From a virus (Duplodnaviria > Heunggongvirae > Uroviricota > Caudoviricetes), in the IMG/VR virus record IMGVR_UViG_3300045988_155182: DNA of 64,000 nucleotides; one strand, 5' to 3'. The notes beneath the pieces were generated by a model. It was not told where the DNA came from. It searched no databases and saw nothing but the letters and a program-made list of their open reading frames with translations. The translations under genes were made by a program, and so were the position numbers. Positions within the stretch are counted from its first letter, which is position 1; each line of letters begins with the position of its first letter. Shown one piece after another: positions 3,730-49,408 of the stretch.

Positions 3730-3791
3730 ACCTGCTTCTGTATATAAATACTAAGTTACTTATTATTATTTATACGGAAGCAGGTCTTTTT
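3730..3791 (+). repeat. Conserved long hairpin element, copy 1 (also acts as a terminator after 2534..3706)
   Basis: cctgcttctgtatataaata ... tatacggaagcagg followed by tcttttt; near-identical arms recur at 49346..49408. Confidence 0.6.
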
Positions 3792-3903
3792 CTATGCCAA
3801 CTTCCCAGACACATTCCCTTCCGTTTCCACTTCCAAAAACTGCCACCAGTCGCTATCATCCGCTCATTGCAATAAGTAAGTAACTACCTATCTGGTGAGC
3901 CAC

Positions 3904-4644
3904 ATGAGCCAAATCTTTTTTGATACCATTGACAACGACCAGTACGACTTCATGACAGAGTGGAATACCGCTGTTATGGACAAGTGGGTCGCTGAAAACA
4001 TTGGTTTGTCGCGCTGCAAAGACGAGGCTGAACTCTTCGAGACGAAGTGGTTTGATTACCGCGATATGCATCCTCTCATGGCCACCTGTCTGTTTACGGA
4101 GGCGTACAAACGTCAGTACTCAAATATCATGCTGACGCACGGTCGCGAACACTTTGAAACAGCTCCGTTCACCACCGGGTTAAAACGCCTGCCTTATCAG
4201 GAGTTGTCGACTGCCAATAAAACGTCGCTATGGAAAGCACGCCAGTTTGCTGATCGCTATTGCTGTTCATACGACTACTTTATCTCCACGGTTCTTTCCG
4301 CAGCTGCACGGCGTCTGTGGGACAAGTTGCCGCGCCCACAGCATTTATGGCAGCCAGAACTGATTGAGATATTCGAAGAGAAATTATCCAGACGCGCAAC
4401 AACCCGTCTGGATGACTCTCTGGTTAGCTTTAAGCATATGGGAGACATGCAGTTCAACCCGATTCAGGAAAGCTATTTTGAGTGGATTCTGGAGCGTTTG
4501 CGCACCATCCCTCGCAGCAAGCGCATACGCGCAATTTTCTCCGCTATCTGGCTAATGGAAATCGTTCCAGAGCGCCTTATTTCCGCCCACTTTCCAGAAG
4601 AACTGGAAGAAGCACGGCGGTTTATTGATCCCCTATCTAATTAA
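3904..4644 (+). CDS. Hypothetical protein upstream of the helicase (helicase-loader role is only a guess)
   Basis: Track ORF starts with GTG at 3895; ATG at 3904; 246 aa; no recognisable motif. Confidence 0.4.
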   Translation: MSQIFFDTIDNDQYDFMTEWNTAVMDKWVAENIGLSRCKDEAELFETKWFDYRDMHPLMATCLFTEAYKRQYSNIMLTHGREHFETAPFTTGLKRLPYQELSTANKTSLWKARQFADRYCCSYDYFISTVLSAAARRLWDKLPRPQHLWQPELIEIFEEKLSRRATTRLDDSLVSFKHMGDMQFNPIQESYFEWILERLRTIPRSKRIRAIFSAIWLMEIVPERLISAHFPEELEEARRFIDPLSN

Positions 4645-4687
4645 CTAATACTAGAAAACAATTTGTTTAAAAAACAAAGGAAAGCAC

Positions 4688-6028
4688 ATGACCGAACTTT
4701 GCCATACAGGACGCGGGCTGTCCGAAGAGTTTGATGAAGATTTTCAGAACAGATTGACGGCCTATTTTTGTCGTGATCACGAGTTTCTTACTCGTGCTGG
4801 AGATCTGGTTGTACCTAGCCAATTTGCCAATGCGGCCAATGCCATATTGGTTAATATGGTTTCGGGCTATTACCGTATGTACAAGAGCGCGCCCTCTTCA
4901 TCTGCGATTCTGGATATGCTTAAGCGTGCGAAACGCGATAAGACTATCCGTGAGGAACTATTCGCCGATGTTGTTGCTGCGTTTAAGCGCATCCTTGCAG
5001 AAAAATTGTCTGATACCTCGTACATGGTTGACCAGGTATCAACCTTCGCAAAAAGCGTAGCGTTTGATGATGCTCTGATTAAGGCTGCTGAACTGAAAGA
5101 GAAGGGCGACTTTCAGGGGGCGATGGCAATCATGGCCAAGGTTCAGCAGATTGGATCGAACGAAGCGACCGGAATCTATGACTACTACACCTCCGCAAGT
5201 GAGCGATTGAAAGCGCGTGAATATGAGGCTTCAGAGGAGTATGTGCCAAACAGCATTACAACTGGACTCCCTCTGCTCGATAGGTTGCTGTACCAAAAAG
5301 GCTGGGCGAAGCGTGAAATGGTGCTCTTCATGGGGTTCGCTAAATCCGGTAAATCGACCGCAATGGGTGAGTTTTCCATAAACGCAACGCTTGCTGGCTA
5401 CAATGTTCTGTATCTCTCGCTGGAGGTTCACACCAACATTTTGTCCGACCGCTTTGATGCAAGATTGTCGGAGACGGAAATGTCCAAGCTGGTGGAACGG
5501 CGCGATGAAGTTCATCGTAAGTTGGCAGAGTTGGGAGCCACTAAGGGGATTGGTAGTTTGTGGGTTGTTGAGCGTCCGTCAGGAAGTATGTCACCTGCAG
5601 ATCTGGACCGTATGCTTAACAGTATGAAAGCCAATGGCATGGTGCCTGACATGGTTGTTGTCGACTACGCAGATTTGATGCGTGCCAGTTATGACCTTCG
5701 TGATGATCGCGCCAATATTCGTAGTATCTACACCGATTTACGTGCTCTTTATGACAAGCATAACGTTGCTGGGATCACGGCATCGCAGACAAACCGTGAA
5801 GGTGGCGCGTCAGAAGTTGCCACAATGATGCACGCCGCCGATAACATCGAAAAAGTACGTATTGCTGACCTGGTAATAACGATCAACAAAACCGAAGAAG
5901 AAGAAGCGAAAGGAGAGGCTCGTCTCTACTTTGCTGGTTCACGTAACCAGCAGGGTGGGATCAGCATTCGCGTTAAACAAAACCTCGAACAAATGCGTTT
6001 CATTGAGCGAATCTTAGACGTTACCTAA
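4688..6028 (+). CDS. Replicative DNA helicase, DnaB/gp41 family
   Basis: Walker A GFAKSGKST, RecA-fold C-terminal domain with VVVDYADLM; conserved AGGAAAGCACATG start context. Confidence 0.8.
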   Translation: MTELCHTGRGLSEEFDEDFQNRLTAYFCRDHEFLTRAGDLVVPSQFANAANAILVNMVSGYYRMYKSAPSSSAILDMLKRAKRDKTIREELFADVVAAFKRILAEKLSDTSYMVDQVSTFAKSVAFDDALIKAAELKEKGDFQGAMAIMAKVQQIGSNEATGIYDYYTSASERLKAREYEASEEYVPNSITTGLPLLDRLLYQKGWAKREMVLFMGFAKSGKSTAMGEFSINATLAGYNVLYLSLEVHTNILSDRFDARLSETEMSKLVERRDEVHRKLAELGATKGIGSLWVVERPSGSMSPADLDRMLNSMKANGMVPDMVVVDYADLMRASYDLRDDRANIRSIYTDLRALYDKHNVAGITASQTNREGGASEVATMMHAADNIEKVRIADLVITINKTEEEEAKGEARLYFAGSRNQQGGISIRVKQNLEQMRFIERILDVT

Positions 6029-6034
6029 AAAATA

Positions 6035-6058
6035 AGCGTGGAGAACACCTCCACGCTT
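6035..6058 (+). terminator. Hairpin after the helicase gene (weak T-tract)
   Basis: agcgtggag aacacc tccacgct. Confidence 0.35.
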
Positions 6059-6109
6059 GATTCATTTGTGAAACAACTTTTCTTTTGCCAAACCACAAAA
6101 GAAAAACAC

Positions 6110-7288
6110 ATGAGCCTTTATGTTATATCAACATTTAGGTTGGTCACAATATTGCCTGTTAAAAGTGGAATTATCGTGAGCGAGCTGAAAGAGCTAATTG
6201 CCGAATTAGATTTTGAACAATGGTTGGATACTGAAGGTATCGTTTATCGACGTGGAGGCGTGAGTGCTCGCGGTCGTGAAGTGAATATCAAGGAATGTCC
6301 GGTATGCGGCAGCTCCAACTGGAAGGTATATTTCAATCTGACCAGTGGCGTCGGCAAATGCTTTGCTGGTGATCATCCCGAAGAGATTCAGTTCAATAAG
6401 CTGGTCTTCCTCAAGCACTACAGCGGCAAATCACGACGACAGTTCGAGGAATATGTGCAGAACGCCCTTCTTTCCCAGGGGTGGGCACCAAAGAAAGAAG
6501 AGATAGTGCTTGCAAGCACAGTCGAGTTAGAGGGACCACTTGCACTCCCTCGTCATTACGAACTTCCTATAGATGGCCGTCTTCCAGACTATCTGGTTGA
6601 ACGAAACATATCGCCTGAAATGGCAAAGTATTTTGACCTACGATACTGCGTCGAAGGTAAGCACGCTTATGTAGATCCGTATACAGATCAGGTTAAAGGA
6701 CAGATATTCGATATGCGAATACTGATACCGGTTTACGATCTGGATGGGGTAATGAAGACATTTCAGGGACGAGACATTACCGGTACAGCAGAACGCCGCT
6801 ACCTCTTTCCTATGCAGCTTCCAGCTTCAGGTAAATTTCTCTACAACGGCCATAATGCAGTCGGCAAACAGACTGTAGTTGTCTGTGAGGGTGCGTTCGA
6901 TGTTATGGGGGTCAAACGAGCTATTTTCGACGAAGAAACATTACGTGATTACGTGGAGCCAATAGGAACGTTCGGGATGCATCTATCTGGCAACACCACT
7001 CAGGATGCAGAAGATCAGTTGGGCGCGTTCCTGACGCTCAAAGCGCGTGGATTACGTAATGTGATCATGATGTGGGATAGTGAAAAGCAAGCTATACGTA
7101 ATACGATGGCCGCAGCCAGGCGACTGACCAGTATTGGTCTTAATGTCAAAGTGGCGTGTTTGGGCGAGGAAGGACTCGACCCGGGCGATGCAACGCCAGA
7201 GCAAATCATCAAAGCCTATTATCGGGCAAAACCGTATACCAAGCAGTTGGAGTTACAAAGCAAGGTTTTGGGCATTAAGGCTCTATGA
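6110..7288 (+). CDS. DNA primase (zinc-ribbon plus TOPRIM)
   Basis: CPVCGSSNW...CFAGDH zinc-binding motif and a TOPRIM-like VVVCEGAFDVMG; start set at the ATG at 6110 that carries the conserved aaaaacacATG context (track start 6038 is GTG inside the upstream hairpin). Confidence 0.75.
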   Translation: MSLYVISTFRLVTILPVKSGIIVSELKELIAELDFEQWLDTEGIVYRRGGVSARGREVNIKECPVCGSSNWKVYFNLTSGVGKCFAGDHPEEIQFNKLVFLKHYSGKSRRQFEEYVQNALLSQGWAPKKEEIVLASTVELEGPLALPRHYELPIDGRLPDYLVERNISPEMAKYFDLRYCVEGKHAYVDPYTDQVKGQIFDMRILIPVYDLDGVMKTFQGRDITGTAERRYLFPMQLPASGKFLYNGHNAVGKQTVVVCEGAFDVMGVKRAIFDEETLRDYVEPIGTFGMHLSGNTTQDAEDQLGAFLTLKARGLRNVIMMWDSEKQAIRNTMAAARRLTSIGLNVKVACLGEEGLDPGDATPEQIIKAYYRAKPYTKQLELQSKVLGIKAL

Positions 7289-7366
7289 TAACAATCACCT
7301 TTAAAATAAGTAGATGATTACTTATCTTTCTGTGAGAATACTTTCATCTGTTAGCTAGGAGTTGGT

Positions 7367-8143
7367 ATGAAAGACGAAATTCAGAAATTAGCCTGCGACA
7401 TCATTGATAAAACTGGTTTAGAAATCAGCGAGAGCAATCGGCTAGACATCATTGAAAAAGCCGTAAAAACAGCAATGGATCATATCGCCACTCGTTTGGT
7501 CGAGATCCCGCTACCAGGGCTACCTTATCTGAAAGTTGAGTTACACGTATGGGGTGAACCTTCTTGTTCACGGCGTTCTGCATTAGTTGTTTTTATTAGC
7601 AAAGAAAACCCGCTCAGTCTTAAAGTGCAGGTTGGTGCATGGATGGATGGAAAAGTGATCTACACAAATACCGTTTTTTGTCTTTCAAACGACGAAACTA
7701 TTGAAGCGGCCATTCAAGAAGCAGTTCTAGCAATGCGCAGCAGCGGTTTGATGAAGAATAACTACGAAGAGTACTTGCGTTCGATAAGTGGTGAAAAGAC
7801 ATTATCTCTGAAAGCAGATTTCGTTACCCCGAAAAATCTGTTGGAAGTCTTGCTTAATAAAGGGGCTAATGATGCCGTAAATGTAATCAGAGAGAGTGAG
7901 TATGCGTCTCTTTGCGACATGTGCAAAAGCCAGTTGGATCTGGTGCATATCGTTATTGATGCTGGGAAGGCATGTGATGGCGTAATGGCGGAATTTGCTT
8001 GGAAGGTGGTCAGGATTGCTAACGAATTACCGATGATAGAGCAAGAGGCCAAATCATACGCCACCAATCATGTCACAGAGCTTCTTGTCCCCTATCGCTT
8101 AGAAAGCAATCAGCGCAAGATGGTTAGCTGGGGAAGTTGGTAA
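7367..8143 (+). CDS. Hypothetical protein
   Basis: 258 aa ORF with ATG start and GGAG RBS, in the operon orientation; no recognised motif. Confidence 0.4.
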   Translation: MKDEIQKLACDIIDKTGLEISESNRLDIIEKAVKTAMDHIATRLVEIPLPGLPYLKVELHVWGEPSCSRRSALVVFISKENPLSLKVQVGAWMDGKVIYTNTVFCLSNDETIEAAIQEAVLAMRSSGLMKNNYEEYLRSISGEKTLSLKADFVTPKNLLEVLLNKGANDAVNVIRESEYASLCDMCKSQLDLVHIVIDAGKACDGVMAEFAWKVVRIANELPMIEQEAKSYATNHVTELLVPYRLESNQRKMVSWGSW

Positions 8144-8198
8144 TCTCTCCGCGCGTCGTTTTTTACGCAAATAACGATAGGTAAGTACAAGATTATTT

Positions 8199-8681
8199 AT
8201 GGCGGTAGTTGTGAAAGCTGATTTGTCAAAAATCCCTTCTATTTCAGGAAATAACGGTTATTCACTTCGTTGTGAGGAAGTAAAGATAAACGGTGAGTCG
8301 GCATATTGCAGCTACTCCGTATGCCAGCACACCATTCTTGCCTTCAAAGAAAACCGTCTTCCTCGAACGTCTTTCCAGTCGTGCGCAACCGCTATTAAAG
8401 CAGGCAAATGCAAGGCGTTAAAAATGATGGTTGAAGAGATTCGTAAAGGAGAATCTCTGTATTTCGAAGATATGACCGCACTCATTAAGGAGGTTGAAGA
8501 ACGGAATAAACAAGCCAGAACTATAAAACGAAAACGTGACAGTGTAACGATTAATAGCATGGTTAAGAAGAGCGCCACATCACAAACAGCGATCACTGAC
8601 GTGTATGCGGCGTTGATTGAAGAAACAACAAAAGAAACACATGAGCAAATCGATCAACATATGGAGGCAAAACAACAATGA
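8199..8681 (+). CDS. Hypothetical protein
   Basis: 160 aa ORF; its stop overlaps the start of the ligase gene. Confidence 0.35.
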   Translation: MAVVVKADLSKIPSISGNNGYSLRCEEVKINGESAYCSYSVCQHTILAFKENRLPRTSFQSCATAIKAGKCKALKMMVEEIRKGESLYFEDMTALIKEVEERNKQARTIKRKRDSVTINSMVKKSATSQTAITDVYAALIEETTKETHEQIDQHMEAKQQ

Positions 8682-10000
8682 AAAAGTTGATCGCACTTAA
8701 GCATAAGCTGGACGAAATGAAAGCTATGGGAACCAATGCAAAAAAAGAGGCATTGGCCAACATGGATGACTTCGAGCAAAGCATGGTTTCATTGATGCTC
8801 AACCCTTTCATCCGTTTTGGGGTAAAGAAATACAAAGTGGCAGAGCCGCTTAGTGAGTCCGTCCCAAGTGACGAAAAAGCCATTGATATACTGAATAAGC
8901 TGGCCTCTCGCGAGCTGACGGGGAACGCAGCAATAGCTGCTGTTGAGTCTATCGTGGCGTCAATGTGCGCCGATGGGCAGGACGTGTTCCGTCGTTTCCT
9001 CTTAAAAGATCCGAAAGCTGGCGTTGGGATTAGCCTATGCAACAAGGTTTTTGAAAATCCCATTCCGAAATTTGAGGTGCAGCTGGCGTCACCGTATAAA
9101 GAAAAAGGCGACAAATACCCCTTCAAGCCAAATCCTAAAGCCAAATGGCCGATGATTGGCAGCCTTAAGCTCGATGGTTTGCGAGTAATTTGTGAGGTTA
9201 TTGTTGACGAGGAAGAGGTGAACTTCCTTTCTCGTACTGGTAATCCAATCACGTCTCTCGATCACCTAAAGCCAGCCATGCTCGAATTAGGCAAACTTTC
9301 AGGCCACAAACACATCTTCTTCGATGGTGAAGGAACAGCCGGTTCATTTAACCAGTCCGTATCTGCATTGCGCAAAAAGAACGTGCAGGCAATTGGCGCT
9401 ATTTATCATGTTTTCGACTTCTTCCTACCGGAATGGCGGGCACAGGCTAAATCCAAAGAGTATGCAAAGACAGGTATAAAGCTGAAAGAGCGCCTGGCTA
9501 TGCTCGTGGCGTTGTTCAAAAACGATCGCAGTGAAGGCTACGCACAAGACATTCACCTGCATCCGTTCTACATCATCCATAGCCACGAAGACTTCATCGA
9601 ACGCTTCATGAAACGCCTGGACGATAACGAAGAAGGGGAGATGGGCAAAGATCCGAACTCTGTTTACGAGTTTAAACGTACCCGCAGCTGGTGGAAGTTA
9701 AAAGACGAAGATTCAGAAGATGGTGAAATTATCGATTTTGAGCCTGGCGACCCGGACTCTGGTTTTGCCAACACGCTTGGAAAAATTGTTATTCGTCTTG
9801 AAAACGGCGTCATCGTTCGTGCGAGTGGCATTAAGCATAAATATCTGGACGAGATCTGGAACAACAAAGAGAAGTACCGTGGTCGTATTGTCGAGGTTCA
9901 TTGTCACGAGAAAACACCTGATGGCAGCTTACGCCACCCACGACTGAAATGGCCGCGTTGCTTACGCGATACCGAAGATCGAATCGGAGATAAAGAATGA
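8678..10000 (+). CDS. ATP-dependent DNA ligase
   Basis: Adenylation motif I KLDGLR (GSLKLDGLRVICEV); 440 aa. Confidence 0.7.
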   Translation: MKKLIALKHKLDEMKAMGTNAKKEALANMDDFEQSMVSLMLNPFIRFGVKKYKVAEPLSESVPSDEKAIDILNKLASRELTGNAAIAAVESIVASMCADGQDVFRRFLLKDPKAGVGISLCNKVFENPIPKFEVQLASPYKEKGDKYPFKPNPKAKWPMIGSLKLDGLRVICEVIVDEEEVNFLSRTGNPITSLDHLKPAMLELGKLSGHKHIFFDGEGTAGSFNQSVSALRKKNVQAIGAIYHVFDFFLPEWRAQAKSKEYAKTGIKLKERLAMLVALFKNDRSEGYAQDIHLHPFYIIHSHEDFIERFMKRLDDNEEGEMGKDPNSVYEFKRTRSWWKLKDEDSEDGEIIDFEPGDPDSGFANTLGKIVIRLENGVIVRASGIKHKYLDEIWNNKEKYRGRIVEVHCHEKTPDGSLRHPRLKWPRCLRDTEDRIGDKE

Positions 10001-10212
10001 TCGTATTAAGTAAAAGGGAGAAAGAAACGCTTCATGAAATCAGTAAGTGGCCGGAGTTCCCTGAGTACTGGAAGCCTAAAACGCGAGCTAAGTTAGAGCG
10101 TTTAGGGTTGGTTGCAAACGTTTCTGAAACGTGGTGCTCGGCCAACTACCAGTTAACTGATAAAGGGAAAGTATTGCTACAGCAATTAGTAGAATCAGGA
10201 GTGTTAAAATGA
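9997..10212 (+). CDS. Hypothetical small protein
   Basis: 71 aa; start overlaps the ligase stop (ATGA). Confidence 0.3.
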   Translation: MIVLSKREKETLHEISKWPEFPEYWKPKTRAKLERLGLVANVSETWCSANYQLTDKGKVLLQQLVESGVLK

Positions 10213-10361
10213 TTCCATACATCTCATTAGCTTTTATGGGTGGCTTCCTTGTCGGCTTCGGCATCTGTCGTGATTTAATTAAGCAGGAACTTAAAACCAA
10301 AACACTGTGCATCGGAAAGCGTGTGTATCGGGTAGTTCATGAAACAAAGGTTAGAAAATGA
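10209..10361 (+). CDS. Hypothetical small membrane protein (50 aa, below the ORF-track cutoff)
   Basis: ATGATTCCATAC... encodes MIPYISLAFMGGFLVGFGICRDL...; coupled to neighbours by overlapping start/stop codons. Confidence 0.25.
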   Translation: MIPYISLAFMGGFLVGFGICRDLIKQELKTKTLCIGKRVYRVVHETKVRK

Positions 10362-10648
10362 GCAATTTAACTTCTTGGGACTGGTGGTTGGCCACCTATT
10401 TCTTAGCGGCCGGAGTCGCATTCGCCTTTTACGTAGGTCAGTTAGTCGTAAAACTGCTGCTGATTAAATTTGCCAGTCATAAACGTATCGATGATGGTCT
10501 GTGGCGTCTTGGCACCCTGGTGGAAACTCGCTACGGGCAACTTAAGGAGAACGAAACCATTACTATCCAAGCGAAACGATTCACTGCCACCATCACAAGA
10601 ACACCTAGTCGTAGAGTGGCCTTGATCAAAAAAGTCACAACCGAATAA
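10358..10648 (+). CDS. Hypothetical membrane protein
   Basis: 96 aa with a hydrophobic N-terminal segment (WDWWLATYFLAAGVAFAFYVGQLVV). Confidence 0.3.
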   Translation: MSNLTSWDWWLATYFLAAGVAFAFYVGQLVVKLLLIKFASHKRIDDGLWRLGTLVETRYGQLKENETITIQAKRFTATITRTPSRRVALIKKVTTE

Positions 10649-10649
10649 A

Positions 10650-11426
10650 ATTACAATGATAAGTATTTACTTACTTATCTTTTATGTATAAGATGACTTT
10701 GTTTTCGTTGAGACGCGACTGTTTGAACTTAAATACAAGTGCAAACGAAGAAGTCTATCTGGCAGTAGCCTAATAAGCCAAACACCAGCGAGGTCAGTTT
10801 CCAGCCTCGTTACCGAAATGGGATACACTGAGCGAGTGTGATTACAGAACGCAGGAGGGAACATGAATGTTCCCTCCGATGAAGTAACAGAATGGGCGGT
10901 TGGTATATTTTCAACTCCATATGACTCCCGGATTCTTAGCCACTGACCGCCCATCCTGTTACGTCATTTTGTTCAATTATGTCGTTTATACTGGGTTAAA
11001 AAGCGGCGACGTAGCCCGGCTGGTATGGTTAGCCAGCACACAACGTTGAGGCCATTACATTTTTATCAATTCTAAGGTTCTATTCACAGAGATACCGGCG
11101 AGCGTTGATATGTAACATGTTGGGCAAACATTCAATCGGAGTAGTGGCCTCAACGTTGTGAAGACAGGATTGTTGTGTAGGTTTAACCACTGTTGCCATT
11201 GGTGCCTGTTTTCACAACAAATGATTCCATACATCACATTGTATAAATTACAAAGTAGGTGCTGTCCTCAGAAACATCATCTACTTAAAGAGTTTGCCTT
11301 CTACTATTGAGCGAAGTCGAAAGCGTCTGGCACTAACGAAAAGTGCAAGTAGCGGTGCGTTTCCTGGCAGAAACTAAACCGTCGCGATTGGCACTGTTGA
11401 GTAATGAATACAGGCAGTGCTGAATT
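10650..11426. other. ORF-poor structured region upstream of the tRNA cluster (candidate ncRNA or processing region)
   Basis: No convincing ORF in ~780 bp; several long inverted repeats including a 20-bp pair at 11037-11056 / 11141-11160. Confidence 0.3.
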
Positions 11427-11501
11427 GATGGTGTAGCTCAGCGGTAGAGCAGTTGGCTGTTAACCAACTGGTCGGTGGTTCGAATCCACCCACCATCGCC
11501 A
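11427..11501 (+). tRNA. tRNA-Asn (anticodon GTT)
   Basis: Cloverleaf by eye: acceptor gatggtg/caccatc, D-arm gctc...gagc, anticodon loop ctGTTaa, T-arm ggtggTTCGAATccacc, encoded CCA. Confidence 0.85.
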
Positions 11502-11503
11502 AT

Positions 11504-11579
11504 GCCGGTTTAGCTCAGTTGGTAGAGCGCCTGCCTTGTAAGCAGGATGTCAGCGGTTCGAGTCCGTTAACCGGCACCA
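11504..11579 (+). tRNA. tRNA-Thr (anticodon TGT)
   Basis: Acceptor gccggtt/aaccggc, anticodon stem-loop cctgc-cttGTaa-gcagg (anticodon TGT), T-arm agcggTTCGAGTccgtt, encoded CCA. Confidence 0.85.
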
Positions 11580-11803
11580 ATACAACGATAAGATCATTAC
11601 GGTTAATCGTCGTTCATGTGCACAATGACTGGTCGAAAGGTAGTGATCTTACCGTTGTGGTGGATTCGCAGACTGATGCGATAGCTTTCTTGGATGTTAG
11701 GGAAATGCGGCCGCAAATCTTCCCTTTCGCGAGCGGTGATCGTCCGTAGTCCTAATTGGCTGCACCGTATGCCGGAGATTCAGTACCGGCCACCACAACG
11801 GCC

Positions 11804-11890
11804 GGAGAGTAGGGAGCATGGTGCTCAAGCGGTCTTGAAAACCGTCCCATTGCGCAAGCGATGATGGTTCGATTCCATTACTCTCCGCCA
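11804..11890 (+). tRNA. tRNA-Ser (anticodon TGA), type II with long variable arm
   Basis: Acceptor ggagagt/actctcc, anticodon loop cTTGAaa, long extra arm, T-loop GGTTCGATTCC, encoded CCA. Confidence 0.75.
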
Positions 11891-12045
11891 GACACAGCGT
11901 TGAGCGGTTTGGCCTTTTAATCAACTCGATTAAGACTCCGCTAACATAAACCAGACCGCTCAACGCTGTGATAGACAATTACGGCAGACGTTCTTAACCA
12001 TAGCTTGCTAACATCCTAGCAACACTTTTTTAAGCGCAAAATCCA

Positions 12046-12068
12046 AAGGGGCTTCGGCCCCTTTTTTG
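12046..12068 (+). terminator. Rho-independent terminator after the tRNA cluster
   Basis: aaaggggc ttcg gcccc followed by ttttttg. Confidence 0.6.
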
Positions 12069-12977: not shown

Positions 12978-13150
12978 TAAAACCTCTATAAAATGTACAT
13001 TTCAAGGCAATCCTTACTGTAATCTATTGTCGTAATCACTTCAATTGTTTACTAGTCAATCAATAAGTTACTACATACTTATCAAAAAAATCTGTTTGTA
13101 GTATAGTCTGATATGTTCGAATCAATATTTATAAAGGTATTTGTTAAGTT

Positions 13151-13396: not shown

Positions 13397-13401
13397 TTTT
13401 A

Positions 13402-13427
13402 ACGGCTCACAGGAGCCGTTTTTATTC
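13402..13427 (+). terminator. Rho-independent terminator after the glutaredoxin gene
   Basis: acggctc acag gagccgt followed by ttttatt. Confidence 0.6.
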
Positions 13428-17762: not shown

Positions 17763-17857
17763 TTAAAACAGCCTTAATGATAAGTAACTACTTATCATAG
17801 TTAATGGTATATTTATATAAGAACTTGAACGCTCATTAGAGAACAAAGGAAAAGCGC

Positions 17858-22822: not shown

Positions 22823-23095
22823 AAAGAATTATGGCGCTTGTTGAGGAAGTCACTCCTCTTACGCACTTTGTTTTGCCATGCCGGCAGTTAGCTTCTGCCT
22901 TTGACTATTCATGCGGCAACCCCGCATTTCGCCACAATGGGCAATTCACTTTTATGGAATAAACTGGCCGTTGTGTCGATTTAATTAGCATGGCCTTACC
23001 ATGCTAATTTATTCAACTTGTACAATCCTACAAATCTATCCACTCAGGCTTACACCGTCTTCGTTATTGTAGAAATGAGGATCATCAGCGTTGAA

Positions 23096-23311
23096 TCAGC
23101 TTAGAGCAACGACATTTGCTGCTGCTGGGCCTTTAGCACCATTCTCGATAGAGAATTCGACCTGCTGGCCTTCTTCCAAAGTGCGGAAATTATTACTCTG
23201 AATTGCCGAAAAATGTACAAAAACATCTTTACTGCCATCAGCAGGAGAAATAAAGCCAAAGCCTTTATCAGAGTTAAACCATTTTACTAAACCAGTCATT
23301 TTATTAGACAT
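23096..23311 (-). CDS. Cold-shock protein, CspA family
   Basis: [38 protein letters not shown]... with RNP motifs; start reassigned to the internal ATG at 23309-23311. Confidence 0.85.
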
Positions 23312-23640
23312 AGATATTACCTTCTTAATTTTGTGAGCCACATAGTGCGGCGAGAATTTGATCTGTATAGATTGGGACTTACTTAGGCACTTAAGGAGGA
23401 GACTCACGAAGAAGGGAAATCAGAAGATAACACTGAACTGAGACTGCTTTACTAAAACTGCTTACATAAGGTCTGTCTTGCAAACCAACGATGCTATTAA
23501 CGCATACCCCTTCTTTTCATGCAACCTTTATTTTTCAAAGATAACTAATTTTTGTCACCATTGGTTTAGTAAACGTTAACGAACCAGACGATGCCAGACA
23601 CCTTTACAGAGAACAGATGCCCGCCAATTGGCGGGCATCA

Positions 23641-28700: not shown

Positions 28701-28760
28701 TCTTGAAAATATATAAGTACTTACTTATTATTTTCGCATAACAACCACATAGGAAAACAC

Positions 28761-41526: not shown

Positions 41527-41632
41527 CATATGGTGGGGGATATCCCCACCTTCTCTTTGATTTGTAAGCCTTGTTTAAACACATAAGATAACAACTTGTT
41601 TAAACGCACCAAAAAAGAAAAAGGAAAAACAC

Positions 41633-42775: not shown

Positions 42776-42852
42776 ACCGATACAAAGCATTATGTGGCCT
42801 GGCAACGCTGGGCCACAATGGATCACAAGAATTAAGAAGGAACAAAACTAGC

Positions 42853-43722
42853 ATGAACTTTACCAAACTGACTGACCACCTGAAACTTGCCACCGATCGA
42901 CTCATTGGATTTAAGCCAGAACCATATGAGTTGCATGAAGGTCATGGTGTAGCTACTGAAAGTATTTACAAGATGGTCGATCAGTTTCATGAACTCTTCC
43001 AGCATCCGAGACGCGTTATGCCGACACCAGAGCTGCTTCGTCTCCGTGCAAGCCTGATTCATGAAGAAGCTGTAGTGGAAGGTATTCCAGCCGCAATGAA
43101 TGGGGATATTGAGCAACTGCTGGATGCAATGGCCGACTTTTTATACGTTGGTGTTGGTACGATGGTCGCCATCAAAGGTGGTATTTCTACCGGCATGACC
43201 TATTACACGCAGGAACAGAGCATTGATCGCTTTATGCAGACAATTTTTGTGCCTGGTAACACTGTTTTCGATGATATGGCAATGCCATTTCAGGAAGCTC
43301 GTGAGGCGTCATGTATGCTCGAAGAGCTGGCAGATAAACTTGAGAACAAGACTGTTAAGGATTCTGAGCTGATTCAGGAACTGCGCCGTGTCATGAACAA
43401 AATCTATGTGGCGTGCATGATGACCTATCGACTGGCTGATTTCCTCGGTATCAATGTAGTCGAGCTGGTTGGCGAAATTCATCGGTCTAACATGACAAAA
43501 TTATGGCCTGCTGATGTTGAGGAACGTCGCCAGGCTGTGGCCAACTGCAAATACGACTCTTCAGATCTGGGATTCCGCCATGCTGATGGCACCGATAAGA
43601 TGATCGGTTTTCGAATTTCCGATGGAAAGATTCTGAAGTCTCCAACCTATAGTGATGTCGATTTATCCTCCTTTGTTGAGCAAGCTAAAGCCTCAGCAAT
43701 GTACGGAATGATCAAAAAATAA
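42853..43722 (+). CDS. Hypothetical protein, possibly a MazG-like all-alpha NTP pyrophosphohydrolase
   Basis: EE..VEG.......EQLLDAMADFLYV resembles MazG/HisE helices; weak. Confidence 0.3.
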   Translation: MNFTKLTDHLKLATDRLIGFKPEPYELHEGHGVATESIYKMVDQFHELFQHPRRVMPTPELLRLRASLIHEEAVVEGIPAAMNGDIEQLLDAMADFLYVGVGTMVAIKGGISTGMTYYTQEQSIDRFMQTIFVPGNTVFDDMAMPFQEAREASCMLEELADKLENKTVKDSELIQELRRVMNKIYVACMMTYRLADFLGINVVELVGEIHRSNMTKLWPADVEERRQAVANCKYDSSDLGFRHADGTDKMIGFRISDGKILKSPTYSDVDLSSFVEQAKASAMYGMIKK

Positions 43723-43791
43723 TTGTAGGTAGTTATCTATCTGTGTATATTGCGTTGGCGCGTTAAATTTCTGAAACAACTATTCGTTTTT

Positions 43792-43818
43792 GGTGGCCTA
43801 TGGCCACCATTTTTTTAT
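43792..43818 (+). terminator. Rho-independent terminator
   Basis: ggtggcc tat ggccacc followed by atttttttat. Confidence 0.65.
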
Positions 43819-43893
43819 CTGTCTGGTCTTGTTCTCTCAATAAATGTAAACTCACGCAATGAATAAGTGGTTACTTATCTTTGTGAGGTTTTT

Positions 43894-44997
43894 GTGTCAC
43901 TCCTTTTGAATCGTGAGCATACGAACGGTCAGGTAACAAACGCATCGTATGCAAAAGTTATTGAGACGGTGCTTAAAAGCGGCGTGCAGGCTGATGATCG
44001 CACAGGCACTGGTACTTTAAGCACCTGCTACGTTCCCTCTTACTACATGCTTACTGGTGGGACTGTGCCGCTTATTTCTGGAAAGGCGGTAAATCTTAAG
44101 CCACTGCTTGTCGAACTTGAGTGGTATCTGAAAGGCACGGGCAACATCCAATTTCTCAAGGATAACGGCGTTAAGATTTGGGATGCATGGGCCGATGAGA
44201 ATGGCGATTTGGGGCCGGTTTACGGTAAGCAGTGGCGTCGATGGGAAGATACCCGCATCGTGAGCCATAGTGAATATCTGAGCAAGATCGCTACTTTCCG
44301 TGAACGCGGGTACAAAGTCGAGGGATACCTGGGTATCAGTGAAGATCGCGTAGTGCTGTCCCGTGAAATCGATCAGCTACAGCGTATTGTCGATACACTG
44401 CGCACGAACCCTACCGATCGTCGCATCATGCTTAACGCATGGAACGTAGGCGAGCTTGAGGATATGAAACTGCCACCTTGCCACTTTGTCTTCTCTTTGT
44501 GGAGTCGTGAGCTGGATTTTGAAACCCGTTTAACGATGGCAACTGACATTGGTCTTCAACACAGTCGCCTCGGTTACGAGTCTATCTACACCAAGATGCT
44601 ATACGATCTGGAGATGGACGGCAGTGTTACTGAAGCTGAACTGGATGAACTTGGAATCCCCAAACGCATCCTCAACTCCTGCCTCGTACAGCGTAGCGTA
44701 GACACTTTTGTTGGTATGCCATTCAATATTGCTGGCTATGGCATTCTCACTCATTTTCTCGCGAAGATTACGGGTCACATGGCCGGTGCATTTGTGCATT
44801 TTGGCTTTGACGTGCATTTGTACAACAACCACATGGAAGGTGTGTGTGAGCTAATGAAACGACAGGCTCCAGAGCATTCAGATCCGGTCGTTATTTTCCC
44901 TCATGAATGGTCAGAGTTGGATGATTTCAAATGGGACGAGGTTTTAATTCTTGGCTATGACCCTCTATCGTGGATCAAGGTTCCAGTGGCGGTGTGA
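43894..44997 (+). CDS. Thymidylate synthase (ThyA) family enzyme with two internal insertions
   Basis: DRTGTGT, WADENGDLGPVYGKQWRRW, RRIMLNAWNVGELEDMKLPPCH and QRSVD...GMPFNIAGY match ThyA motifs; about 50-aa inserts interrupt the alignment; start uncertain (GTG at 43894 after GAGG; track start 43867 is also GTG). Confidence 0.8.
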   Translation: MSLLLNREHTNGQVTNASYAKVIETVLKSGVQADDRTGTGTLSTCYVPSYYMLTGGTVPLISGKAVNLKPLLVELEWYLKGTGNIQFLKDNGVKIWDAWADENGDLGPVYGKQWRRWEDTRIVSHSEYLSKIATFRERGYKVEGYLGISEDRVVLSREIDQLQRIVDTLRTNPTDRRIMLNAWNVGELEDMKLPPCHFVFSLWSRELDFETRLTMATDIGLQHSRLGYESIYTKMLYDLEMDGSVTEAELDELGIPKRILNSCLVQRSVDTFVGMPFNIAGYGILTHFLAKITGHMAGAFVHFGFDVHLYNNHMEGVCELMKRQAPEHSDPVVIFPHEWSELDDFKWDEVLILGYDPLSWIKVPVAV

Positions 44998-44998
44998 T

Positions 44999-45412
44999 AT
45001 GGCAAGAGGTATGTATGTCTTATGCGAAATTGAAGGTGTGCTGGCAAATGCCAGCCATCGTAAATCAGTATCTGACGCGGATGCAGGCCAGCTCATTGCC
45101 GGTGATGAACTCATTTTCCCCACCAGCCGTATGTTGCGTGGTTTTGCTCGCTCAGGGGCTGAAGTGGTGCTTATCAGTAGCCGCTCTGAAACTCTTGAAG
45201 CGCCAACTAAACGATGGCTGAAAGATTTTGGCGTTGATTATGACTGGCTTCATCTCGTACCGAATGGCACCAGTTATGAGAAGCATATTAAGCGCACATT
45301 AGCGGAGCATAAAGGCGATCTGCTTATCGCTGCGCTGGTGCACGATCCTCGACTCCGTGCCGCTTTAGCCGACTCTCACCATCGACCGGTCATCTATGAG
45401 GTGAGCAAATGA
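44999..45412 (+). CDS. Hypothetical protein (possible HAD-like nucleotidase; weak)
   Basis: ATG immediately after the ThyA stop; 137 aa. Confidence 0.3.
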   Translation: MARGMYVLCEIEGVLANASHRKSVSDADAGQLIAGDELIFPTSRMLRGFARSGAEVVLISSRSETLEAPTKRWLKDFGVDYDWLHLVPNGTSYEKHIKRTLAEHKGDLLIAALVHDPRLRAALADSHHRPVIYEVSK

Positions 45413-45885
45413 AGATGATCGCTGCTGTTGGCCGTAACTATGAGATCGGCATAGCGAATGAACTCCCCTGGCGTTGTTCTACCGATCTGAAGCTATTTAA
45501 GAGACTCACCAAAAACGCCACTGTCGTTATGGGGCGTAAAACGATGGAAAGTCTCAAACGCCCTCTTCCAGAGCGTCATAACCTCGTTTTGACGCGCTCT
45601 CATGGCTTTGTACCAAATGGATTCTACCCTGCTGGTGTGGATGATGTGTTGCGATTACCAGAGCCTGTGTGGGTGATTGGCGGGGAACAAATTTACTCGC
45701 TATTCATGCCGCATGTTGAAGAGATTTGGCTCTCCCACATCGGCGTTGATGTGCCAAACGCCGATGCATTCTTCCCGGCAAGCATGATGCGTAATTTAGG
45801 CTTTGTGCCTGTTGAAACAGCTTATACCCAACGAGCCAGCGAGGAAGAGCCTGGCTTTTCGCAGATCGTATACAGAAGGTCGTAA
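45409..45885 (+). CDS. Dihydrofolate reductase
   Basis: IAAVGRNYEIGIANELPW...VVMGRKTMESLKRPLPER...VIGGEQIY pattern of FolA/T4 Frd. Confidence 0.8.
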   Translation: MKMIAAVGRNYEIGIANELPWRCSTDLKLFKRLTKNATVVMGRKTMESLKRPLPERHNLVLTRSHGFVPNGFYPAGVDDVLRLPEPVWVIGGEQIYSLFMPHVEEIWLSHIGVDVPNADAFFPASMMRNLGFVPVETAYTQRASEEEPGFSQIVYRRS

Positions 45886-46529
45886 TGGATTACCGGATTG
45901 GGATCACTGGTGCTCAGGGCAGTGGGAAAACAACCCTGGCTAAATATATCGACAAACATTACGGAATCCCTTACGTGGATGCTGGTGTCGGAAGTTTGAT
46001 GAGCCGCCTCGGTGTTCGAGTAGGTGATTCTATGCCTCTATATGAGCGGCTTCAGATTCAAATGGAAATAGCAAAGCATATAGAGCTACTTACGCGTGGT
46101 GTTGAAGGCTTTGTTATCGATCGCACACCTGCTGATGTTATGGCCTACACGTTGGATTTGGTCGGCCATACAAATGAAGATCGGTGTATTGAGTTAGCCC
46201 TCGATATCGAAAAGTTTTGCCACAAAACTGCTATTTCAAACTTTAACGCCATTGCTGGCTTACGCCCGGGAGTCGCTCTCTCAGAGCGAGATTACTTGCG
46301 ATCACAACGAGCATCATTAGACCGTCTGTATGTCGCTCGTATTGATGCGTTGATGTGCGGGGAACTGACAAAAATTCACCTGCATCCGCAAAGGGGAGAT
46401 CTGCAAACCTTCGTCGTTTCCAACCGATATCGCACGGTTGAAGCAAGAGCCAGATCAGTAATGAGAATGCTAGATAACGCTGTAGAAAAGATAGAAAACC
46501 GGTTCTGTGGCCGAGTGACCGTTCATTAG
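45885..46529 (+). CDS. P-loop nucleotide/nucleoside kinase (dNMP-kinase-like)
   Basis: Walker A GITGAQGSGKTT at the N-terminus; sits in the nucleotide-metabolism block. Confidence 0.5.
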   Translation: MDYRIGITGAQGSGKTTLAKYIDKHYGIPYVDAGVGSLMSRLGVRVGDSMPLYERLQIQMEIAKHIELLTRGVEGFVIDRTPADVMAYTLDLVGHTNEDRCIELALDIEKFCHKTAISNFNAIAGLRPGVALSERDYLRSQRASLDRLYVARIDALMCGELTKIHLHPQRGDLQTFVVSNRYRTVEARARSVMRMLDNAVEKIENRFCGRVTVH

Positions 46530-46590
46530 AAATTGTTCGCCTCTTCGACATTGCGACAATAAAACTCTCAAAATGGGTTAAGGATAAAAA

Positions 46591-47010
46591 ATGTTTAGTG
46601 AAATGTTGCTTGAAGATGAACTGGATCGGAAAACAACAGAGGCTTTGATTCGTGTAGCGGACGAACATTCCCGGTCGCTTATGAGCGATCGAGAGGCTCG
46701 TCTGGCTATTCGTGCCATATTCGAAACTGCGCAGGGGCTTGTTGGTACACAAGTGGGTGAAGCCATTAACATCGCCATGTCTCAGTTCAGTGAAGGCAGT
46801 AAAAAGCCTCTGTTTCCTATGCATTTGATGCTGGCTGGTGGCACGGTGCTTTATATCTCTGTTTGTCTGGATAGCAACCAAATCAATATTCTCAACACTG
46901 TGTCAGGTAAGTGGAAAGATCCGATTGTCTGTGAAACCAGTGAAGAAACTTTGAAAAAAGCGGCTCAATTTGTACGTAGCGCACTACTTAAGGGCGCTAA
47001 GAAGTTGTAA
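46591..47010 (+). CDS. Hypothetical protein
   Basis: 139 aa ORF. Confidence 0.35.
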   Translation: MFSEMLLEDELDRKTTEALIRVADEHSRSLMSDREARLAIRAIFETAQGLVGTQVGEAINIAMSQFSEGSKKPLFPMHLMLAGGTVLYISVCLDSNQINILNTVSGKWKDPIVCETSEETLKKAAQFVRSALLKGAKKL

Positions 47011-47019
47011 GGAGTTCTG

Positions 47020-47577
47020 ATGACAACGATTGTTGCAGGCATCGATATCGAGTCTACGGGACTGGATTTCCTTGCTGGTCATAAAATTATTGAAATCGCA
47101 ATTACCCGCTATGAACTGGAGACACAGAGACATATTGATAGTCTGGAGATGCGTTTTAACCCTCGCAGAAACATAGATCCGAAAGCTCAAGCCGTTCATG
47201 GCATTTCATTGGAACAGCTCGCAGCTGAACCTTTGTTGTCAAATCATGCCAGCGAAATTGGCGCTTATATGGGGGCATGTAGTGTGTGGGTTGCTCATAA
47301 CGGCGAAGCATTTGATATACCATTTATTCGACACGAGTTTTCAGGGTATGGAGTAAGACTGCCAGAAGTTCCTGTTATAGATACTATGTTATCGGGATTG
47401 TGGGCCACAGAAGACGGTAAACGTCCCCGCCTTGAAGAGTTGGCCTTCTCTCTTGGCTTTATATACGATCATGCCAAAGCACATAGTGCCTTATATGACA
47501 CAAACTTAATGATGCAATGCTTCTTTAAGGCACGTAATAAGTACGGATTTTTTAAATTACCCTCTGAAATTGTGTAA
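47020..47577 (+). CDS. DnaQ-like 3'-5' proofreading exonuclease (DEDDh)
   Basis: Exo I IDIESTG, GHKIIEIA, Exo II VAHNGEAFDIPF, Exo III HSALYDTNL; closely parallels E. coli Pol III epsilon. Confidence 0.8.
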   Translation: MTTIVAGIDIESTGLDFLAGHKIIEIAITRYELETQRHIDSLEMRFNPRRNIDPKAQAVHGISLEQLAAEPLLSNHASEIGAYMGACSVWVAHNGEAFDIPFIRHEFSGYGVRLPEVPVIDTMLSGLWATEDGKRPRLEELAFSLGFIYDHAKAHSALYDTNLMMQCFFKARNKYGFFKLPSEIV

Positions 47578-47581
47578 AACA

Positions 47582-47620
47582 AAAGCCTACTTTAAAAAGT
47601 TTAAAGTAGGCTTTCTTTTA
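47582..47620 (+). terminator. Rho-independent terminator
   Basis: aaagcctactttaaa aagt ttaaagtaggcttt followed by ctttta. Confidence 0.65.
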
Positions 47621-47735
47621 AAGAACAGTCGCCTTTTAATCATTTCCTGCCTGTATTTAATACTTTTCCGCCTGATAGGTTTAGTCAAAATGTAGCCATC
47701 GAAACGCAAATGTAACCAAACAGAAGGAGACTTAC

Positions 47736-48545
47736 ATGAGTTCGGTTGAAAATGTAATGACAAATGATGATCTGGACGAGCTGACAGCCATGTTGCAATC
47801 ACTTGATGAACCAGTAAAAAAAGCTGCACAGGTTGAAAATACTGATGATATTGACGATCTGCTGCTCGGCCTAGATGCTGGCGTAGCCATGAGTTCTGAT
47901 GATGTTGCCGAAGAACTGTTCAATGAAGAAAAAGCAGGTGATTTCAGCTCTGCTTTAAATGAGTTGGAGTTAGCGCATGAGCCTATAAACGTAATTAACG
48001 CTGAAAGTGTTGAAGCTGCCGAAAACGAGCCAGAACAATTGGGATTTATTGAGGTTGAAGAGTGTGTTGAGGTTAATGATGAATTAAAAGTTCAACAGTC
48101 AAATGATAGCAATACAAATAAAAAAGCTCGTACTGCAAGAGGTCCTCGTTTTACTTTAAGTGATAAAGATGATTCGTTTTTCAATAAAGCGGGCTTAGAA
48201 AAAGATATTTTCTTAGACGCTTACGATAACGCGCCTGTCAAAGCAAAGGATAAGATATTAAACCTTCTTAATTGGTTTAGCGGAGGTCCAGATATTAGTG
48301 TTTACACGGTAATTTCCATGAGACACCTTCTCACAGAAAAGAAGGCTACAAGTAATAGTATTAAGATTGCTTTAATGAGCAATCCAGAAAAACCGTATCC
48401 GCTTAACACTGCGTCAACTCAGGCTGGGCAAATGATGGCTGTATTTCCAGCGACAGGAATTGCCGTTAGAGACGGTGGAAATCTAACATTGAACGAAGAA
48501 TCACCGATCGTTAAGAAGTTTGTCGCGGAGTACACTATTGGATGA
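47736..48545 (+). CDS. Hypothetical acidic protein
   Basis: 269 aa, D/E-rich N-terminal half. Confidence 0.35.
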   Translation: MSSVENVMTNDDLDELTAMLQSLDEPVKKAAQVENTDDIDDLLLGLDAGVAMSSDDVAEELFNEEKAGDFSSALNELELAHEPINVINAESVEAAENEPEQLGFIEVEECVEVNDELKVQQSNDSNTNKKARTARGPRFTLSDKDDSFFNKAGLEKDIFLDAYDNAPVKAKDKILNLLNWFSGGPDISVYTVISMRHLLTEKKATSNSIKIALMSNPEKPYPLNTASTQAGQMMAVFPATGIAVRDGGNLTLNEESPIVKKFVAEYTIG

Positions 48546-48728
48546 CGTTCCCCTACTGAAAATAAAGCCCATAGAGAGCTTTATAGTGCTGGGCAAGCCA
48601 ATCACATACCCAGCACCACAAAAACGCGCCAGAGAGCTTCTCGTTTGCATTTCTGGCGTGTTTTATTTGATTGCCAGACATAAAATCAAATGCAAAAATA
48701 GGTATTTACTTACCTATCGAGAAAGAAG

Positions 48729-49322
48729 ATGATTGCAGCCGAAAAAATCAAACAGCGAAAGCGCGACAACTCTCTTCGTGACCTCTGGAGAACACCTGAC
48801 TGGCTGTTTTCTGCCATTCAACGTTATCTTGGGGTGACATTTGATGTTGACGTTGCCTGCAACAAGGACAATGCAAAGCTGCCTAATTTCATAGGCGTTG
48901 AGCGTGATGCTTTGAAATCTGAATGGGGACAGCCAGGTACAATTGCCTTCCTCAATCCCCCCTACTCCAAAATCTCCCCCTGGATTGATGCGGCTATACG
49001 TGAGCAGGCTCGCGGAGTTACAACAGTGATGCTAATTCCTCAATCCCTAGATACAAAGTGGTATGAGCGTGCAACAGAGTGTGCGAATGAGACGATTATT
49101 CTGTCTGGTGGCCGCGTAGCGTTTGTCGAGCCTGACGTCAATCTGGGTCAGGTAGAAGTAAACATCAACCCAGGTGGCAGTATGCTCGTTGTTTTTCGAG
49201 GATTCTGTCAGGACGCTGGGCACTCTATAAGCAAGATCCCTTTGGACGTCATGAAAAGTCTGGGAGGGTATGATCCTGCGAATGTGATCAGGAAAAAAAG
49301 ACCATCAAAGAAGGCTGCTTAG
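48729..49322 (+). CDS. Phage-type DNA N6-adenine methyltransferase (Dam_N6 family)
   Basis: WRTPDWLF, FDVDVACN and catalytic NPPYS motifs. Confidence 0.7.
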   Translation: MIAAEKIKQRKRDNSLRDLWRTPDWLFSAIQRYLGVTFDVDVACNKDNAKLPNFIGVERDALKSEWGQPGTIAFLNPPYSKISPWIDAAIREQARGVTTVMLIPQSLDTKWYERATECANETIILSGGRVAFVEPDVNLGQVEVNINPGGSMLVVFRGFCQDAGHSISKIPLDVMKSLGGYDPANVIRKKRPSKKAA

Positions 49323-49345
49323 TTTGTTCTGGCGTCTGTAATTAG

Positions 49346-49408
49346 CCTGCTTCTGTATATATAAATAACTACATATTAATTATTAATATACGGAAGCAGG
49401 CTGTTTTG
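49346..49408 (+). repeat. Conserved long hairpin element, copy 2 (terminator-like, after the methyltransferase)
   Basis: cctgcttctgtatatataaata ... tatacggaagcagg followed by ctgtttt; arms match 3730..3791. Confidence 0.6.

Follow-up and report, generated by a model that had tools for sequence, protein, structure and literature searches.

The window analysed here is a stretch of 64,000 nucleotides from a virus of the Caudoviricetes (IMG/VR record IMGVR_UViG_3300045988_155182), and this report concerns a palindrome of 54–55 nt that occurs in it twice, at sites that we call s1 and s2. This DNA belongs to an SSU5/pHCM2-type phage-plasmid of E. coli. Its sequence identity is 96–98% with the Escherichia phage-plasmids CMS-2020a, Cyrano (pLF82) and PhiR41_1, and ∼80% with Salmonella phage SSU5. 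Nearly all window genes are carried on the + strand, and both copies of the palindrome are flanked by co-directional genes. Upstream of s1 are the parA-orf119 operon and then two cargo genes; downstream are a conserved gene (ATG at 3904) and then the genes for a DnaB-like helicase and a primase. The s2 copy is preceded by a Dam methyltransferase gene and followed by a small conserved gene (ATG at 49508).

Anatomy of the two hairpins

The two copies, and the T-tracts that adjoin them, are as follows.

3731–3784, + strand: s1 palindrome copy, 54 nt, composed of CCTGCTTCTGTATATA, 22 nt of AT-rich sequence and TTTATACGGAAGCAGG
3785–3793, + strand: s1 T-tract TCTTTTTCT, directly 3′ of the stem (7/9 U; RNA form UCUUUUUCU)
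49346–49400, + strand: s2 palindrome copy, 55 nt, composed of CCTGCTTCTGTATATA, 25 nt and TATACGGAAGCAGG
49401–49409, + strand: s2 T-tract CTGTTTTGT, directly 3′ of the stem (6/9 U; RNA form CUGUUUUGU)

The 16-nt left arm CCTGCTTCTGTATATA is identical in s1 and s2, as is the 14-nt right arm (TATACGGAAGCAGG), and both copies have an AT-rich centre. An initial annotation of the window, made from the sequence alone, had described two conserved hairpins with identical arms and T-tracts, and this description holds; window shuffles do not reproduce them. It had placed the hairpins at 3730–3791 and 49346–49408, which are the right sites, but the cores end at 3784 and 49400. With up to three mismatches allowed, the 16-mer has four matches in the window, which are the two arms of each copy (shuffle mean 0.38; 0/100 shuffles reach four), and the 14-mer has five, against 0.25 expected, a count that likewise none of 100 shuffles reaches. 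The arm patterns are confined to the two hairpins.

The folding check proposed in the initial annotation bears it out as well, since both copies fold as long hairpins, at −24.2 kcal/mol for s1 (z −5.6) and −27.8 kcal/mol for s2 (z −7.0), with none of 200 shuffles as stable in either case. In s1 a GC-rich clamp, CCTGCTTC/GAAGCAGG, is followed by an AU-rich upper stem. The basal 8–10 bp of the two stems consist of CCUGCUUC(U/C)G paired with CGGAAGCAGG, which provides a stable GC-rich base, and each stem has one U·G pair, at position 9. G49345 and C49401 extend the s2 stem by a further pair, and the continuous stems of the hairpins reach ∼20–25 bp. The apical region is AU-rich with internal loops in both, rather than the compact 3–8-nt loop that efficient terminators typically have, and a consensus terminator scan of the window listed neither s1 nor s2. 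Rfam has no family at or above the gathering threshold for either copy, with only generic long-hairpin microRNA models below it.

Three orthologous sites in one plasmid lineage

Orthologues of both s1 and s2 are present in SSU5 and in Cyrano. Both also have a third copy, s3, which lies between terS and a small gene, at a site outside the window. The family thus has three orthologous sites: s1 follows the parA operon and variable cargo and precedes the replication genes, s2 follows dam, and s3 precedes terS. A pattern scan of IMG/VR and three protein-anchored scans gathered 78 s1, 65 s2 and 74 s3 loci, and all of these copies map to the three sites. The search for further copies that the initial annotation had recommended was productive outside the window, in s3 and in the orthologous copies of SSU5-like plasmids; within the window, a profile built from at least 100 related copies finds no further one.

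In the one-genome-per-species data of GTDB, the element is found only in SSU5-like plasmids of Kluyvera, Buttiauxella and Yersinia pestis (pMT1), with three copies on one 108.7-kb contig in Kluyvera. Among complete E. coli genomes it is present in 260 of 5426, and 1169 of its 1171 places are on plasmids, those listed being mostly ∼105–115 kb. Given this confinement to one plasmid lineage at fixed sites, it is not a general bacterial repeat, and in these collections we consider it specific to SSU5/pHCM2-type phage-plasmids, in three copies. A search of the literature found no description of the element or of SSU5-type regulation.

Core genes lie on both sides of s2 and of s3, and dam, which adjoins s2 in all relatives compared, is a core gene of the SSU5-type lineage rather than cargo. 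The claim that each copy follows a cargo gene is accordingly right for s1, which is preceded by an AT-rich cargo gene (39% GC), but not for s2. Travel with cargo is likewise contradicted, as the copies in IMG/VR, GTDB and the 260 E. coli genomes occupy the same three sites. Among the loci compared there are no target-site duplications, no empty sites and no presence/absence polymorphism; a miniature mobile element, also suggested at the outset, does not fit such fixed sites. We propose instead that the three copies are paralogues of long standing, whose likeness is owed to descent and perhaps also to occasional exchange between them.

Two further identities were considered and set aside. Integron attC sites are imperfect palindromes after cassette genes that need R″/R′ core sites, RYYYAAC ... 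GTTRRRY, at their ends; here the ends are CCTGCTTC/GAAGCAGG and the boxes TCTGGGAG/CTCCCAGA, and GTTRRRY is absent. Repetitive extragenic palindromes (REPs) and miniature inverted-repeat transposable elements (MITEs) were rejected because their defining features are absent.

The SSU5 and Cyrano records (NC_018843 and OV696614) start and end inside the s3 loop, 134 nt upstream of terS, and several IMG/VR contigs end at or near a hairpin. The record ends probably reflect assembly breakage at the palindrome followed by re-orientation, and not a physical end. A cos site or hairpin telomere at s3 was rejected: the cut is 9 nt off the dyad centre, a third record starts at a gene ATG, and TerL is of the Terminase_6/T4 type. 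Terminases of this type usually package by headful.

Probable termination at s1 and s2

The genes that end at the two hairpins, apart from the cargo described below, are as follows.

676–1703, + strand: parA (222 aa; Pfam ParA/MipZ-type ATPase) and a translationally coupled gene for a 119-aa protein, orf119 (PHROG 5111 match only)
48729–49322, + strand: Dam-type adenine methyltransferase, the last gene before s2 (Pfam Dam, E-value 2.5e-38)

The expression data that bear on termination come from Cyrano. In its RNA-seq data (PMC9928086, S1 Table), the three genes before s1, CYRAN_28, 29 and 30 (parA, orf119 and cargo), have values of 50, 89 and 55, and CYRAN_31, just after s1, has 6.2, with a background of 9.8. 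From these gene-level values the drop across s1 is ∼9-fold on average and up to ∼230-fold, and in one condition the contrast is log2 10.4 versus 2.6 (PMC9928086). The 194-nt gap between CYRAN_30 and CYRAN_31 contains only the s1 hairpin and its T-tract, and the Cyrano s1 folds at −33 kcal/mol (z −9.7).

The drop from 50–89 to 6, together with the strong hairpins and the T-tract on the sense strand, supports the terminator role suggested in the initial annotation. Because of this drop, we read s1, and probably s2, as intrinsic, factor-independent terminators that insulate modules, and we put the probability of this reading, in which both are copies of a three-copy, lineage-specific palindrome, at about 0.6. 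The case for termination is good at s1 and plausible at s2. For s2 the Cyrano data are uninformative, because dam is already at background (6.0) before the hairpin; CYRAN_80, after it, has a value of 9.5 (PMC9928086), and this somewhat higher value suggests that a promoter lies downstream of s2. The same data show a drop of only 2.5–3.5-fold across s3, where there is no T-tract.

The T-tracts are well kept among close relatives. TCTTT(T) follows s1 in nearly all 78 loci and is retained in Moellerella despite changed arms, and at s2 most loci of E. coli, Salmonella and Klebsiella have CT(G)TTTT. Where relatives have no cargo (L016 and L096), ∼30 nt separate the orf119 stop from s1, so that s1 would seem to have begun as the terminator of the par operon, before cargo was inserted between the two.

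The parA and orf119 genes form a lysogenically expressed operon, which is closed by s1. In the mechanism that we favour, RNA polymerase arriving from upstream would transcribe the GC-clamped, AU-rich hairpin and be released at the adjoining U-tract of the sense strand. The s1 hairpin would in this way end transcription of the operon and of the inserted cargo (here PDC-S31 and PD-T7-5), and would shield a repressed helicase/primase module that would have its own promoter and operator 47–107 nt further on. The s2 hairpin would likewise end the DNA-metabolism/dam block.

Cargo and possible exchange at s1

The slot between the par operon and s1 contains the following genes in the window.

1709–3706, + strand: variable cargo between the par operon and s1, two anti-phage defence genes
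1709–2467, + strand: PDC-S31/DUF2971 (PADLOC E-value 4e-38; GC 41%)
2510–3706, + strand: PD-T7-5, the gene before s1 (PADLOC E-value 2e-139; GC 39%)

The GC content of the window is 45.5%, as opposed to 39–41% in the cargo genes. The cargo at 1709–3706 has no match in any of ten related phage records, and homology with all ten begins within ∼16 nt of the left end of s1. A comparison of 60 distinct s1 regions gives at least 12 unrelated sequences for the left flank, whereas the ∼30 nt adjoining the core retain a TCTGG-type box. The slot contains different genes in other relatives and so looks like a hotspot for defence or other cargo, and s1, as a conserved anchor beside a variable slot, also marks the right-hand border of this hotspot.

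The cores themselves appear to have been exchanged. The window s1 is 97% identical to that of SSU5, with flanks at 82%, and its core and the ∼35 nt downstream are of the Salmonella SSU5 type within flanks of the E. coli type. Among E. coli relatives, the s1 core seen most often matches a common E. coli s3 core at 55 of 55 positions, which suggests that the copies exchange sequence. Relative to its flanks, the AT-rich centre is flipped in the s1 copies of Cyrano and of a Kluyvera plasmid. A recombination hotspot, another suggestion of the initial annotation, is partly supported, by the hypervariable left flank of s1, its mosaic allele, the identical s1 and s3 cores and the inverted centres, but it applies to the border at s1 alone; the borders of s2 and s3 are not variable.

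SSU5/pHCM2-type phage-plasmids are common in clinical Enterobacterales and carry defence and resistance cargo, and we found no published map of their regulation. If s1 insulates constitutive cargo from repressed lytic replication genes, this would explain why cargo builds up at that slot, and the hairpin would serve as a 55-bp marker for finding the slot in any member of the lineage.

Flanking boxes and candidate downstream signals

Outside the cores are inverted boxes of the CCAGA type and, after s1, promoter-like and operator-like sequences.

3801–3810, + strand: right-hand CCAGA-type box of s1, CTTCCCAGAC
3831–3859, + strand: putative sigma70-like promoter for the replication module, TTCCAA-17 nt-TATCAT (predicted from sequence only)
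3872–3891, no strand assigned: 20-bp operator-like palindrome ATAAGTAAGTAACTACCTAT, of the ATAAGTA-N6-TACTTAT motif family
49328–49337, + strand: left box of s2, TCTGGCGTCT, complementary to 49415–49424 at 9 of 10 positions
49415–49424, + strand: right box of s2, AGACTCCAGA, which pairs with 49328–49337 in the extended fold
49457–49466, + strand: second right-hand box of s2, CTTCCCAGAC, with an inverted partner GTCTGGGAG at 49258–49266, inside dam

The window has seven GTCTGGG/CCCAGAC sites, and three of them are found no more than 90 nt from a hairpin, where ∼0.06 would be expected by our own estimate; this enrichment is real. At s3 the boxes form a symmetric layout, with the arrangement TTACTGG..GGTCTGGG..core..CCCAGACC..CCAGAAA. 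Outer complementarity is highly significant in s2 of the SSU5 type (27 of 31 positions; 0/1000 shuffles), where the T-tract resembles a 15-nt insert between the inner and outer arms. Some s3 copies show it to a moderate degree, and in the s1 and s2 copies of the window it is weak and not significant.

The candidate promoter and the operator-like palindrome lie 47–107 nt downstream of the s1 hairpin, in a region that is conserved in all s1 loci. The initial annotation had placed a promoter within the loops, on the strength of motifs that are only partly there: the s1 loop has TAAGTT and ACTTATTA, the window s2 loop has neither motif exactly, and TAAGTA occurs in the loop of Salmonella-type s2 alleles. 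We find no support for a promoter there; the sigma70-like candidate lies downstream of s1 instead. A homologous promoter downstream of both hairpins was rejected, because pairwise alignment of the two flanks is not above shuffles; they have only a 10-mer in common, and 59 of 2000 shuffles score as well.

The 20-bp palindrome ATAAGTA-N6-TACTTAT recurs before many window genes. Sites are at 3872–3891, 8177, 10659–10678, 13063–13082, 17780–17795 and 25189, and further ones are at 28713–28732, 30335, 30662, 34470, 43725 and 55883. A 12-mer of the motif has 25 matches in the window with up to two mismatches, against 6.8 expected, and the motif is also present in the distant Moellerella plasmid. By analogy with the C1 operators in P1, this dispersed motif looks like the operator of a master repressor. 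A perfect 12-bp palindrome of another type, AAAATCGATTTT, is found at 49472–49483, between s2 and the next gene, where it overlaps a possible −10 element (TAAAAT, 49471–49476); it is conserved in SSU5 and in Klebsiella relatives.

Arms, loops and strands in distant lineages

In distant relatives, with Dam proteins 61–75% identical, a hairpin persists after dam, with arms GCCTTGCTCCCATA/TATGGGAGCAAGGC or GCCGTG.../...CACGGC, a loop of 50–60 nt and no T-tract. In another lineage the left half of the palindrome is missing, and a small, separate canonical terminator comes after the remaining right half. The arms GCCTAGCTCCCATA are common to s1, s2 and, approximately, s3 on a complete Moellerella plasmid, where the loops are 50–110 nt long and the flanking boxes are CCGCAG/CTGCGG instead of TCTGGGAG/CTCCCAGA.

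The Moellerella plasmid (NZ_CP093251) also has three solo left halves (at ∼575, 26057 and 51934; L510–L512), each consisting of a box, the arm GCCTAGCTCCCATA and an AT-rich start. They are intergenic and at non-orthologous sites, and two of them are then followed by an operator-like motif. An exact 14-nt right arm lies inside nrdA of the same plasmid.

At s1, the arm positions show 32 wobble pairs versus 3 C·A mismatches, favouring the sense strand. At s2 and s3 this bias is absent or reversed, and we do not accept it as evidence for a role at the RNA level, as it is confined to the s1 arms and does not extend to s2, s3 or folding of the whole element. The variable spacing of the arms and their compensated changes favour intrastrand pairing, and the absent strand bias and the boxes make a role at the DNA level possible.

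Alternative explanations

Several observations weigh against termination as a full account of the palindrome. The RNA-seq values are gene-level, come from a relative with a different s1 allele and are silent on s2. The s2 T-tract is absent in distant lineages, and s3 keeps the full palindrome in every lineage, never with a T-tract. Among 69 distinct cores, drawn from several genera and the three paralogous sites, arm positions 1–14 hardly vary, whereas a plain terminator needs structure and not sequence. In L308, L309 and Moellerella both arms change together, and all copies in a genome have the same new arms. The 50–110-nt loops of distant relatives are poor for termination. Folding of the whole element gives no overall advantage to the sense strand, and for s2 the antisense strand folds ∼6 kcal/mol better on average. 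In addition, the core has inverted CCAGA-type boxes on either side, of which the right-hand ones would be missing from a terminated transcript. Termination leaves unexplained a third copy without a T-tract, arms and boxes that evolve together, and centres that have flipped. The sequence conservation of the palindrome family suggests an additional role besides termination.

The alternative that takes up most of these points is a primary role at the DNA level, in which the palindrome would extrude as a hairpin or cruciform, or would bind a phage-plasmid protein that reads the CCAGA-type boxes, with termination being secondary. It might then be a dispersed centromere (as in N15), a lytic origin or unwinding element, or a programmed break site, the last involving the T4-like recombination proteins of the phage-plasmid (SbcCD-like, UvsX/Y/W-like and RuvC-like). 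We regard this as a tentative second choice, short of an even chance by a wide distance. It would account for the near-invariance of the arms across paralogues and genera, for the replacement of arms and boxes together in Moellerella (GCCTAGCTCCCATA with CCGCAG/CTGCGG) and for the compensated changes in L308 and L309, and the range of arm spacing, from 22 to ∼110 nt, suits intrastrand pairing better than a duplex dimer site. Also in line with it are the s3 and distant s2 copies without a T-tract, the symmetric box layout at s3, the lack of sense-strand bias, the AT centre inverted in two lineages, the solo half copies in Moellerella, and the gene context, as s1 adjoins the par operon and two ParB_N genes lie 3 kb from s3. 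However, a candidate binding protein was not found, the repeats upstream of parA (described below) could be the centromere instead, outer complementarity is weak in the window's own copies, and arm covariation could also arise by quasipalindrome template switching and gene conversion. The cumulative GC skew curve of the window, a near-monotonic rise that is uninformative, has no inflection at the hairpin sites. A stronger version, in which three GC-clamped palindromes with symmetric boxes and a co-evolving protein would make up a lineage-specific DNA structure system that is not primarily a terminator, seems to us slightly less likely again. We are equally doubtful of its corollary, that the palindromes would be dispersed centromeres or the start or break sites of T4-like recombination-dependent replication, with the defence slot beside one of them.

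RNA processing, or retroregulation, is improbable in our estimate. Here read-through RNA would fold into a mostly double-stranded hairpin of 20–45 bp, RNase III would cut it, and the neighbouring mRNAs would be uncoupled or destabilised, as at T7 R-sites or lambda tI/sib. Termination would fall to the inner hairpin, with pairing of the outer boxes restricted to read-through transcripts. The continuous stems are long enough, at or above 20 bp, the outer boxes lengthen the stem in the window s2 and strongly so in SSU5-type s2 (27/31), and s3 lies within a row of co-directional genes without a T-tract. On the other side, G·U pairs are not preferred over C·A on the sense strand overall, the s2 antisense strand folds better, outer pairing is not significant at s1 or at the window s2, and no Rfam family matches. 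Least probable is a selfish or mobile miniature palindrome of the MITE or REP type that spreads within and between genomes. The inverted boxes at the ends of a ∼100–150-bp unit are what such an element might have, and the extra solo halves of Moellerella lie at non-orthologous intergenic sites, but plasmids of E. coli, Salmonella, Klebsiella and Kluyvera all have exactly three copies, placed at the same orthologous sites, chromosomal places number only 2 of 1171 in complete E. coli genomes, and target-site duplications and empty sites were not seen among the loci compared.

Comparison with known systems

Read as intrinsic terminators, s1 and s2 have the typical GC-rich stem base and U-tract at the end of co-directional genes, and gene-level expression drops sharply across the orthologous s1 of Cyrano. 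They differ from the typical short GC stem with a 3–8-nt loop in being 54–55 nt long with an AU-rich upper half, in having the same sequence at three paralogous sites and across genera, and in having a relative, s3, without a U-tract.

The nearest described concept is that of the PeSL cassettes of T4-type phages (PMC2839356, PMC4122927). These are likewise repeated, conserved intergenic stem-loop terminators beside variable accessory genes and plausible homology anchors for cargo exchange, and a promoter is predicted to follow at s1 as it does there. PeSLs are short, however, and occur in many copies in hyperplastic regions, with a near-consensus early promoter as part of the repeat (PMC2839356, PMC4122927), whereas here there are three copies at fixed sites, of which only s1 borders a variable region, and the promoter is not part of a demonstrable repeat.

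Lambda tI/sib and the T7 RNase III sites resemble the present family in that they are long, mostly paired intergenic stems, and in the nesting of a terminator hairpin within a longer dyad that forms only in read-through RNA. They have no sequence relation to it, and the present copies lack a sense-strand bias and, in the window genome, pair only weakly in their outer parts.

The phage-plasmid N15 has short palindromic centromere sites that bind SopB, are dispersed and are related to F sopC. As here, a few palindromes are scattered over a phage-plasmid, with one near the partition operon, but the present ones are at least 54 nt long with AT-rich centres, and the likeness is one of gene context. 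REPs and bacterial interspersed mosaic elements (BIMEs) are also intergenic palindromes able to terminate transcription or stabilise transcripts. REPs, though, are 20–40 bp long and occur in hundreds of chromosomal copies with RAYT transposases, as opposed to three copies in one plasmid lineage.

Other sequence features

Upstream of parA are two copies of AGGCTATA(G/T)C(C/A)CAT (442–455 and 608–621) and a palindrome, GTACGG-N7-CCGTAC (480–498). Both are candidate centromere or operator sequences for the small partition system formed by ParA and the 119-aa protein. The motif ACAAGTTGTTT(C/T)AG is found just upstream of parA, at 629–645. In Cyrano and SSU5 it occurs twice as a direct repeat, 60–100 nt upstream of terS, and these repeats are followed by a small GC hairpin (AGCGCA-N4-TGCGCT) and then a T-run. 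Elsewhere in the window, a full-length Rfam cspA thermoregulator (188 bits) precedes a cold-shock gene at 23071–23489 on the − strand, and two tRNA genes lie at 11427–11576 on the + strand.

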